A stretch of 64,000 bases of DNA from Lama glama. Its lineage: Eukaryota. Shown here piece after piece: positions 31,650 through 32,620 of this stretch (position 1 is the first letter of the stretch; the number at the start of each line of letters is the position of its first letter). The notes beneath the pieces were generated by a model. That model had not been told where the DNA came from. It saw only the letters and a list, made by a program, of their open reading frames with translations, and searched no databases. The stretch is from the NCBI GenBank assembly GCA_028534125.1, contig CM052816.1, positions 59,336,001 through 59,400,000 on the forward strand, written 5' to 3'. The position numbers were made by a program, and so were the translations under genes.

Positions 31650-32620
31650 AGTGCGGTGTCTGGGTCCACCGTGCACAGCAACACCCCGCTGTACCGCGCG
31701 TCCCCAGGCCGGGGCTCGTCCCCCTTCTGGTCGCCACAGTCCCCACTTGTGAGCTGGTAAAGCTTCTGAAAGCATGAACGAGCACCATAGTTAAAGGCCT
31801 CTTTGTTCCTGCACGCAGATTTTTGCATTTCTTTTTCTTGTGGTGTCGGGTGGGGTTGTGGCTTTGAATTAAACCAAAAAAACCCAAAAAACAAAAACCC
31901 AAAAAAAGAGGGAAGAAAGAAAGGCGAGGCCCTCCAGACAAGGGAGAAACGTGTGGTCCTCGCTCGGTGCGAGGCTGCCGCCTCCCCGACGACGGTTCTG
32001 TCGAAAGCGCGAGTCCCAGCTGCAGACAGACGGCTTCCCGGCCGCCGCTCAATTCCAAGGCCAGGCCGGAGAGGAGCCCTGTGCCGGCCGGAGGCCGCGG
32101 GAGCTGAACTTCGGGAGCGGTGGGGCCGGCCCTTCATCGCCGCTGCTGCGCGTACACCGGGTAGGCCAGTGTGACGTTGAGGGAGTCGTTGTGCTGCACG
32201 AGGGACGTGTGCTGGTAGTGGAGCACCAGCTCCTTGAGGGAGCCGTACAGGTTGTAGGGCTCCGCGAAGCCGTAGCCCGTGGCCGTCTTGTTGATGACGC
32301 AGTGCTTGACCTCGCCGTCCACCCTGCGGGCGGGGAGAGCACACAGGCCTGGGTGAGCCGGCAACCCAGCCCCACTGAGCCGCTGTGTTTCCATCTTTGG
32401 GATGGAAAGGTAGTAATAACGTCTGTAACAGGGGGCTCAGAGAAAGCAGACACCGCGCAGGGCCTGCCCGAGGGATGCCTAGGCCGCGGCGGGCAGGCTC
32501 CGGGCGGTACCCCCCGCCCCCGCCCCGCGGTCCTGTTAGCGCAGGAACAGGGCGGCCTCTGCAGCTCCGCATTCGCTCTCTACCCCCTTGTCCGCGCTCC
32601 ACGTTCTTCTCCTGCCTTTC
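31650..32620. other. CpG-island-like GC peak spanning distal intron 15, exon 16 and the proximal 3'UTR
   Basis: Very high CG density against AT-rich flanks. Confidence 0.85.
32134..32323 (-). CDS. PIK3R1: PIK3R1 last coding exon 16 (190 bp including TGA): (V)[62 protein letters not shown]
   Basis: Acceptor cgcag|G, stop TGA at 32136-32134; p85alpha-specific C-terminus YAQQRR. Confidence 0.98.

Follow-up and report, generated by a model that had tools for sequence, protein, structure and literature searches.

PIK3R1 and its last coding exon

The window, by which we mean the whole 64-kb stretch of llama DNA that was analysed, carries the 3′ part of PIK3R1 on its minus strand. Its last coding exon was located as follows:

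32323-32134, minus strand: PIK3R1 last coding exon (exon 16), with an AG acceptor and a TGA stop

This exon encodes residues 663-724, the end of the cSH2 domain, plus the stop codon; Pfam SH2 matches were weak. G or C occupies 60 of its 62 third codon positions (GC3), the exceptions being ACA and CGA, whilst GC3 was 15/47 in exon 12. The last exon differed significantly from exon 15 (36/56; Fisher's exact test p = 6e-6) and from the other 10 located PIK3R1 exons pooled (219/414; p = 5e-13). The counts for exons 16, 15 and 12 given in a sequence-only reading of this DNA were exact on recount.

Nine of the PIK3R1 exons in the window (375 residues) were compared with p85alpha of Camelus ferus (EPY80895), a tenth located exon being missing from that model and so excluded. 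This showed one difference, compared with 9 residue differences for the same nine exons in warthog, 12 in buffalo and 14 in sheep, which marks the window as camelid. The sole difference from the C. ferus protein is residue 176, which is Val (GTG, exon 48508-48377, minus strand) in the window and Met in C. ferus and most mammals compared, a further A-to-G step that lies beyond the GC tract described below. A 500-base N gap at 34950-35449, between exons 35926-35824 and 34668-34526, probably holds the nSH2/iSH2 exons that are absent from the six-frame listing. Two 3′UTR blocks, 30882-31200 and 28569-28826 (minus strand), show conservation with the bird orthologue. They include some 40 consecutive bases identical between window and bird that end in AATAAA at 31005, and more AATAAA occur at 28303 and 28119.

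A CpG island over the last exon

The window was scanned for CpG islands of at least 500 bp, with GC of at least 55% and CpG o/e of at least 0.65. Three islands were found, at 31578-32969, 39005-40039 and 13687-14419. The first of these covers the last exon and is the strongest CpG peak of the window apart from the p50alpha promoter. It is a CpG island by its sequence, and its parts and surroundings are:

31578-32969, no strand assigned: 3′ CpG island or GC-biased tract, 1392 bp, GC 0.58 (0.579), 90 CpG, o/e 0.77
31925-32620, no strand assigned: core of the tract, GC 0.67, CpG o/e 0.84 (100-bp profile)
32324-32620, minus strand: 3′ end of intron 15, GC 0.67, CpG o/e 0.72
32969-34316, minus strand: 5′ shoulder over exons 15, 14 and 13, GC3 36/56, 15/22 and 37/58

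The interval 31650-32620, to which the sequence-only reading had assigned the tract, has GC 0.63 and 78 CpG with an o/e of 0.82, against 0.41 and 0.31 for GC and o/e of the whole window. The tract is real, but it is wider than that interval, has an AT-rich poly(T) break inside the island at 31830-31925 (GC 0.39) and carries the 5′ shoulder, where CpG o/e is 0.54 (32969-34300). The claim that the GC and CpG excess spills from the exon into intron 15 and the UTR was borne out, with GC of 0.67 in the intron end and 0.71 in the proximal UTR (31925-32133, CpG o/e 0.92). TpG and CpA were 1.10 and 0.98 in the core, and 1.42 and 1.25 in the distal UTR. This lowered TpG/CpA excess fits a putative germline-unmethylated island; strong GC-biased gene conversion (gBGC) alone could also hold CpGs. 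Rfam, tRNA and tandem-repeat scans of the tract gave no match, and no long repeat or tandem array was found there.

The island at 39005-40039 lies at the p50alpha alternative first exon, a short coding exon near 39350, and the coding part of the p55alpha first exon (37425-37320) is without CpG. Some 17 kb separate the last exon from the island at 13687-14419 (GC 0.54, o/e 0.65), which lies downstream of it. The first half of this island resembles an old MLT1-type LTR, an element that is normally CpG-poor. On its composition, 13687-14419 is a second candidate GC-gaining spot. A differentially methylated region (DMR) of pig PIK3R1 was considered as a counterpart of the 3′ island and rejected, as it sits about 28 kb before the annotated gene end according to the available text of the source (PMC8207654).

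Third positions that cannot form CpG

Of the 60 G/C third positions in the last exon, 44 lie outside any CpG. Third positions that are unable to form a CpG are G/C in 33 of 34 cases, and the non-fourfold third sites in 29 of 29. With 33 of 34 CpG-proof positions G/C, a lack of methylation is insufficient alone and a fixation bias is needed.

The strength of such a bias was estimated on the assumption of equilibrium, with the mutation bias taken from another clade, seals, for which two rows in the accessible part of Joseph et al. 2024 (PMC11161765) give a mutation-only equilibrium GC of 0.26-0.28. This implied B of about 4.5 for the last exon (lower 95% bound 2.7), or 4.1 (lower bound 2.3) when the mutation-only equilibrium was set to 0.35. 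The flanking non-coding GC of about 0.70 gave B of about 1.5-1.9. The GC3 of the last exon is compatible with the equilibrium GC3 of 94% that was fitted for exon-specific gBGC episodes in rodents, as described in the sections available of Riffis et al. 2025 (PMC12290510). Non-coding GC (about 0.7) lies far under GC3 (0.97), which leaves room for extra selection on codons.

Comparison with a bird orthologue

A metagenome scan returned 228 candidate stretches, from which two loci emerged: L001, a PIK3R1 of bird type, and L002, a paralogue from a fish. Scans of viral contigs, prokaryote genomes, plasmids, phages and E. coli yielded no usable sequence. L001 was recognised as bird-type by Asn689 and Pro676, and its last exon has G/C at 26 of 62 third positions. 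At 261-403 a single base of exon 12 is missing from it, probably through an error in assembly. In what follows, each pair of counts sets the sites at which the window is G/C and the bird A/T against those of the opposite kind.

In exon 16 the differences were 38:0 towards G/C, 23:0 outside CpG and 35:0 when isolated differences only were counted. Exons 12-15 gave 11:4, 18:8, 9:1 and 22:10 respectively, pooled 60:23, and exon 16 differed significantly from this pool (Fisher's exact test p = 9e-5; non-CpG p = 6e-4). Exons 12-15 themselves also lean towards G/C, and the signal appears to be partly gene-wide.

The proximal 3′UTR aligns to the bird UTR with a local score of 113 (shuffle mean 38, maximum 59 of 500). 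The two are therefore homologous, which argues that GC was gained in place and not by insertion. Isolated mismatches were counted in six aligned UTR blocks, the sequence between the blocks falling outside the alignment:

31821-32133, minus strand: proximal 3′UTR, apparently converted in place, isolated differences 23:0 (14:0 outside CpG)
31500-31820, minus strand: 3′ flank with decaying bias, 8:3 and then 12:5

Beyond 31500 the counts were symmetric (5:5, 13:8 and 13:17), the bias being gone about 0.65 kb past the stop codon. A non-CpG weak-to-strong excess relative to the bird, as expected of a gBGC tract, was present in both the exon and the proximal UTR. Coding and non-coding sequence were both biased, with decay over distance; intron 15, which does not align to the bird, was judged by composition only. 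The direction of change was read from the symmetric flanks and from mammal-type records, not from a tree. The proposal that a weak-to-strong bias runs over coding and non-coding sequence, beyond the survival of CpGs, was thus upheld (33/34, 23:0 and 14:0). The profile of peak and decay has the shape of the footprint that a recombination hotspot would leave. At hotspots, peaks in GC* are narrow and decay within 5 kb in the data described in the part of Joseph et al. 2024 (PMC11161765) available to us. The bird is about 300 My distant, and the gain within mammals cannot be dated from it.

Dating through off-frame protein records

A shifted reading frame turns third codon positions into first positions, so that mis-called off-frame proteins encode the third positions of the last exon. 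Such off-frame calls of PI3K regulatory-subunit exons are numerous in public protein collections and can be decoded to third-position states. A HMMER search with a 314-residue off-frame ORF returned 37 proteins (P0337-P0373). By inspection, P0337 and P0341 read as the mammalian p85alpha exon and six further records (P0338, P0339, P0347, P0362, P0363 and P0367) cover mammal-type UTR, whilst the remaining off-frame records read as fish genes or paralogues. Nine records were sent to the decoder; six had an anchor and were decoded, four of which were not mammal-type. TGA is read as Trp in some of the decoded records.

P0337, which has Ser689, carries G/C at 49 of 54 decodable third positions, where the window has 52 and the bird 23. 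After removal by hand of sites at which T would close the off-frame, the count is 40/45. P0341, also with Ser689, carries G/C at 37 of 55 (window 53, bird 24). P0337 is a sample from the upper tail, because an off-frame stays open only in GC-rich copies and because the search ranking follows similarity to the window. All weak/strong differences favour G/C in the window, at 3:0 against P0337 and 16:0 against P0341. Among the 53 sites decodable in both records, 22 are G/C in the window, both records and the bird, and at 14 the bird alone is A/T. The window shares G/C with P0337 alone at 11 sites and is the sole G/C sequence at 2; a further 2 are A/T throughout and 2 show other patterns. On the window's side the changes from P0337 comprise 3 synonymous and 1 non-synonymous weak-to-strong and 0 strong-to-weak, four changes being too few to test.

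A mouse 'PI3K' primer pair in the accessible text of PMC9598562 covers 14 third positions, of which 12 are G/C (window 14, bird 7); this count was made by hand, primers are chosen for GC, and the assignment to PIK3R1 is our own. A primer match from a second paper was set aside as due to chance. A search with the antisense frame gave 2 matches among 826 candidates. These were incompatible with p85alpha at 6 positions and hence rejected as a paralogue.

These patterns suggest that GC rose stepwise, with some of the gain early in mammals, much of it shared with P0337 or made in parallel, and little on the window's own branch. Since a record with Ser689 already stands at 49/54, most of the gain would be older than the camelids or have arisen in parallel, and the idea that the tract is young and arose in this lineage found no support in that form. 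High GC3 common to the window and P0337, which is known from a protein record, and the recurrence of Gly689 described below both fit a hotspot that would be stable across lineages.

Residue 689

When the last exon was compared with human p85alpha structures, 61 of 62 residues were identical, the one difference being S689G:

32242-32244, minus strand: codon 689, Gly (GGC), Ser in most boreoeutherians, between Tyr688 and Ser690

The GGC codon forms a CpG with the codon of Tyr688. Both neighbours of residue 689 are phosphosites, Tyr688 for Src-family kinases and Ser690 for IKK in starvation feedback. Residue 689 was scored in 65 mammal records, labelled by hand from 325 proteins with duplicate isoforms excluded (some records stand for several species), and was Ser in 47, Asn in 10 and Gly in 8. 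Asn689 occurs in tenrec and marsupials. Gly689 occurs in Camelus ferus, Neomonachus, two Mirounga, two Desmodus/Phyllostomus records (one of them shared with Camelus), platypus and echidna. Ser689 is present in sheep, buffalo, serow, warthog, porpoises, rhino, Phoca, Halichoerus and otariids, and in pteropodid, vespertilionid and emballonurid bats. Among 53 boreoeutherian records it is the only variable residue of the last exon.

Ser689 in sheep, buffalo, serow, warthog, porpoise and rhino makes G689 a weak-to-strong change on the camelid branch. By simple parsimony, Gly689 would have been gained at least three times, in camelids, monachine seals and phyllostomid bats. Codon 689 is AAC in the bird and GGC in the window, and in P0337 and P0341 the off-frame residue is compatible with a codon that begins with AG; Asn to Ser to Gly would then be two successive A-to-G steps through a deduced Ser codon. 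Gly689 is also found in most teleost records and Asn689 in frogs, and with Gly689 in monotremes this marks the site as permissive.

For the IKK motif, positions -2, +1 and +3 are the ones that matter, and since all three are unchanged an effect of S689G is doubtful. IKK phosphorylation of Ser690 blocks cSH2 binding according to the portions available of two sources, both of which cite a starvation-feedback study (10.1101/2025.10.16.682970, PMC9578963), and one of the two adds that phosphorylation of Tyr688 may activate PI3K.

We consider it about evenly balanced whether gBGC caused the recurrence of Gly689. Neutral toggling at a permissive, CpG-forming site is a somewhat weaker candidate, and selection is an improbable one. 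Glucose handling is unusual in elephant seals and in phyllostomid bats. In the accessible text and tables of PMC11161765, Mirounga leonina (Gly689) counts among three outliers in the use of PRDM9-independent hotspots, whilst the Hawaiian monk seal (Neomonachus, Gly689) shows ordinary use, with a relative rate of 1.06. Searches of the full-text open literature, with subscription papers, figures and bioRxiv supplements outside their scope, returned no paper on the island or on S689G.

It had also been proposed that conversion could lie behind apparent rapid evolution of this gene in camelids, which are known for high blood glucose. This argument proved weak, because the exon has a single amino-acid change, S689G, and, that change apart, a surge of synonymous GC change lowers dN/dS, so that the tract is unlikely to explain a rapid-evolution call. 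For 'PI3K and AKT', Jirimutu et al. 2012 (PMC3514880) describe rapid evolution by dN/dS, with PIK3R1 unnamed in the passages and supplement that were searched. In a 2025 camelid comparison (PMC12127551), PIK3R1 occurs once in the six searchable supplements, in a list of one-to-one orthologues. PIK3R1 mRNA falls in fasting camels, according to the part of PMC8458433 that was available, which says nothing on the island.

Promoter motifs and off-frame runs

In length, GC and CpG o/e (0.77-0.84) the island is similar to the p50alpha promoter island, whose core has an o/e of 0.93. Matching to motif consensus sequences gave five GC-box hexamers in the island, four of them clustered at about 32500-32555 in the end of intron 15, a match not being evidence of function. 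There was no match in the island to TATA, CCAAT, NRF1 or E-box motifs. Two long stop-free runs also cover the region:

31628-32659, minus strand: off-frame stop-free run of 343 codons, reached by 7 of 1000 block shuffles (post hoc)
31873-32724, plus strand: antisense stop-free run of 283 codons, a shadow frame expected with G/C third positions

Neither run gave a Pfam match or a coding signal. The 343-codon run was rejected as a gene and read as a by-product of GC richness, since loss of stops is expected from the GC3.

Explanations for the tract

The composition, the one-way asymmetry against outgroups, the decay with distance and the presence of the bias at non-CpG sites are observed. We infer recombination as their cause, and the explanation that we regard as probable is long-acting gBGC at this end of PIK3R1, of greater age or wider spread than the sequence-only reading had proposed. 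Much of the gain would predate the camelids or have run in parallel in another mammal, and would then have continued on the camelid branch. Under this explanation the end of PIK3R1 would have been a site of elevated meiotic recombination over a long time, with a bias of heteroduplex repair towards G/C alleles. The synonymous sites in the last exon, together with the adjoining intron and UTR, would have been converted in place, most strongly at about 31925-32620 and with decay over 0.5-2 kb. The resulting CpG-rich island may have become hypomethylated in the germline and, as a hotspot independent of PRDM9, may continue to draw breaks. Purifying selection would have kept the protein constant except at the permissive residue 689, where the Ser-to-Gly A-to-G step was presumably fixed, as it would have been independently in monachine seals and phyllostomid bats. 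Camelids are absent from the species of Joseph et al. (0 matches in the searched text and 4 supplements; PMC11161765), and searches of the open literature found no camelid recombination map or DMC1 dataset.

An ancient eutherian 3′ CpG island or GC-rich exon, retained here and eroded in primates and rodents with nothing special to camelids, would agree with the G/C states shared by P0337 (49/54), P0341 (37/55) and the mouse primers (12/14), and with the 14 sites at which both mammal-type records match the window against the bird. Parsimony, however, reads the 11 sites shared with P0337 against P0341 and the bird, along with the 2 window-only sites, as gain, and S689G was gained on the camelid branch. 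The 33 of 34 non-CpG sites would still need a force, so that this account, which we hold to be unlikely, shifts the date and not the mechanism. At the other extreme, a young, camelid-only gBGC burst of about 1 kb, as the sequence-only reading had it, draws on the differences from P0337 and P0341, all of which favour the window, and on a G689 that is specific to camelids among the artiodactyl records. P0337, moreover, heads a list that is ranked by similarity and biased in its ascertainment, and it could represent a separate, parallel case. Against this, P0337 is already at 49/54 (40/45 with frame-closing sites dropped) and the tract extends over 1.4 kb with a shoulder to about 34300, and we give such a burst very little credence.

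Selection might instead have built or kept the island as a regulatory element (an antisense or intragenic promoter, or an enhancer) or through mRNA tuning by codons or UTR structure. The likeness to the p50alpha promoter island, the five GC-box hexamers and a GC3 above the non-coding GC point that way, but every substitutable site moved in one direction, including 29/29 non-fourfold sites, with a smooth decay, which is unlike selection on motifs. GC boxes would be expected by chance at 70% GC, and the missing TATA, CCAAT, NRF1 and E-box motifs, the lack of an Rfam family and the off-frames devoid of coding signal weigh further against an explanation that we judge less probable still than the ancient island, if better placed than the young burst. 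Insertion of a GC-rich element, ectopic conversion with PIK3R2, a GC-rich paralogue, as donor, or an assembly artefact comes last and is largely refuted. The off-frame search did also return records that we take, by their p85beta residues, to be PIK3R2-like; yet the exon encodes p85alpha at 61/62 residues, its UTR can be aligned with that of bird PIK3R1, the protein is the same in Camelus ferus, and long repeats and tandem arrays are absent.

Relation to known systems and significance

Intragenic or 3′ 'orphan' CpG islands are islands away from annotated start sites. The PIK3R1 island is like them in its position, here over the last exon, and is known by its sequence. Long-acting gBGC at this site would have close relatives. 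The exon-specific episodes described in the available parts of Riffis et al. 2025 (PMC12290510) show the same clustered synonymous weak-to-strong change with an equilibrium GC3 of about 94%, and also weak-to-strong amino-acid change, as here; those punctual episodes concern one branch and one exon, whereas the PIK3R1 tract spills over exons and apparently involves several branches or lineages. PRDM9-independent ('default') hotspots, as far as the accessible text of PMC11161765 describes them, share the narrow GC peak with decay over kilobases, the CpG-island composition, the non-CpG bias and, presumably, the long life. They are defined by break maps in knockout mice and by sperm hypomethylation and are mostly promoter-like, unlike the PIK3R1 tract, which lies at a gene 3′ end and is known here from sequence alone. 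The runaway GC of gerbils (Pracana et al. 2020, PMC7403616) is, in the passages available, the same extreme GC3 put down to gBGC in a desert mammal with the protein touched, but there it takes the form of megabase clusters with high rates in all mutation classes, against a 1.4-kb peak in a 41% GC region and a single residue here.

As an isolated GC-rich exon the locus would be ordinary, thousands of such episodes having been described in rodents. The tract is probably one more instance of a known process, gBGC, and what it adds is a testable case of possibly conversion-driven convergence at residue 689. It offers a compact test of whether a convergent residue change in a core metabolic regulator came about by selection or by recombination bias. 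If gBGC is causal, the seals and bats with Gly689 should share the surge of synonymous and UTR GC, and their Ser689 sisters (Phoca, Halichoerus and fruit bats) should show less of it. The locus is also a candidate for a stable hotspot at the 3′ end of a gene rather than at a promoter. A bolder reading, speculative and on balance doubtful, is that the 3′ end of PIK3R1 may be a long-lived, non-promoter laurasiatherian hotspot which drove S689G at least three times. If this were true, a meiotic repair bias may have repeatedly altered insulin/PI3K feedback, or may only seem to have altered it adaptively, in lineages known for fasting or high blood glucose.
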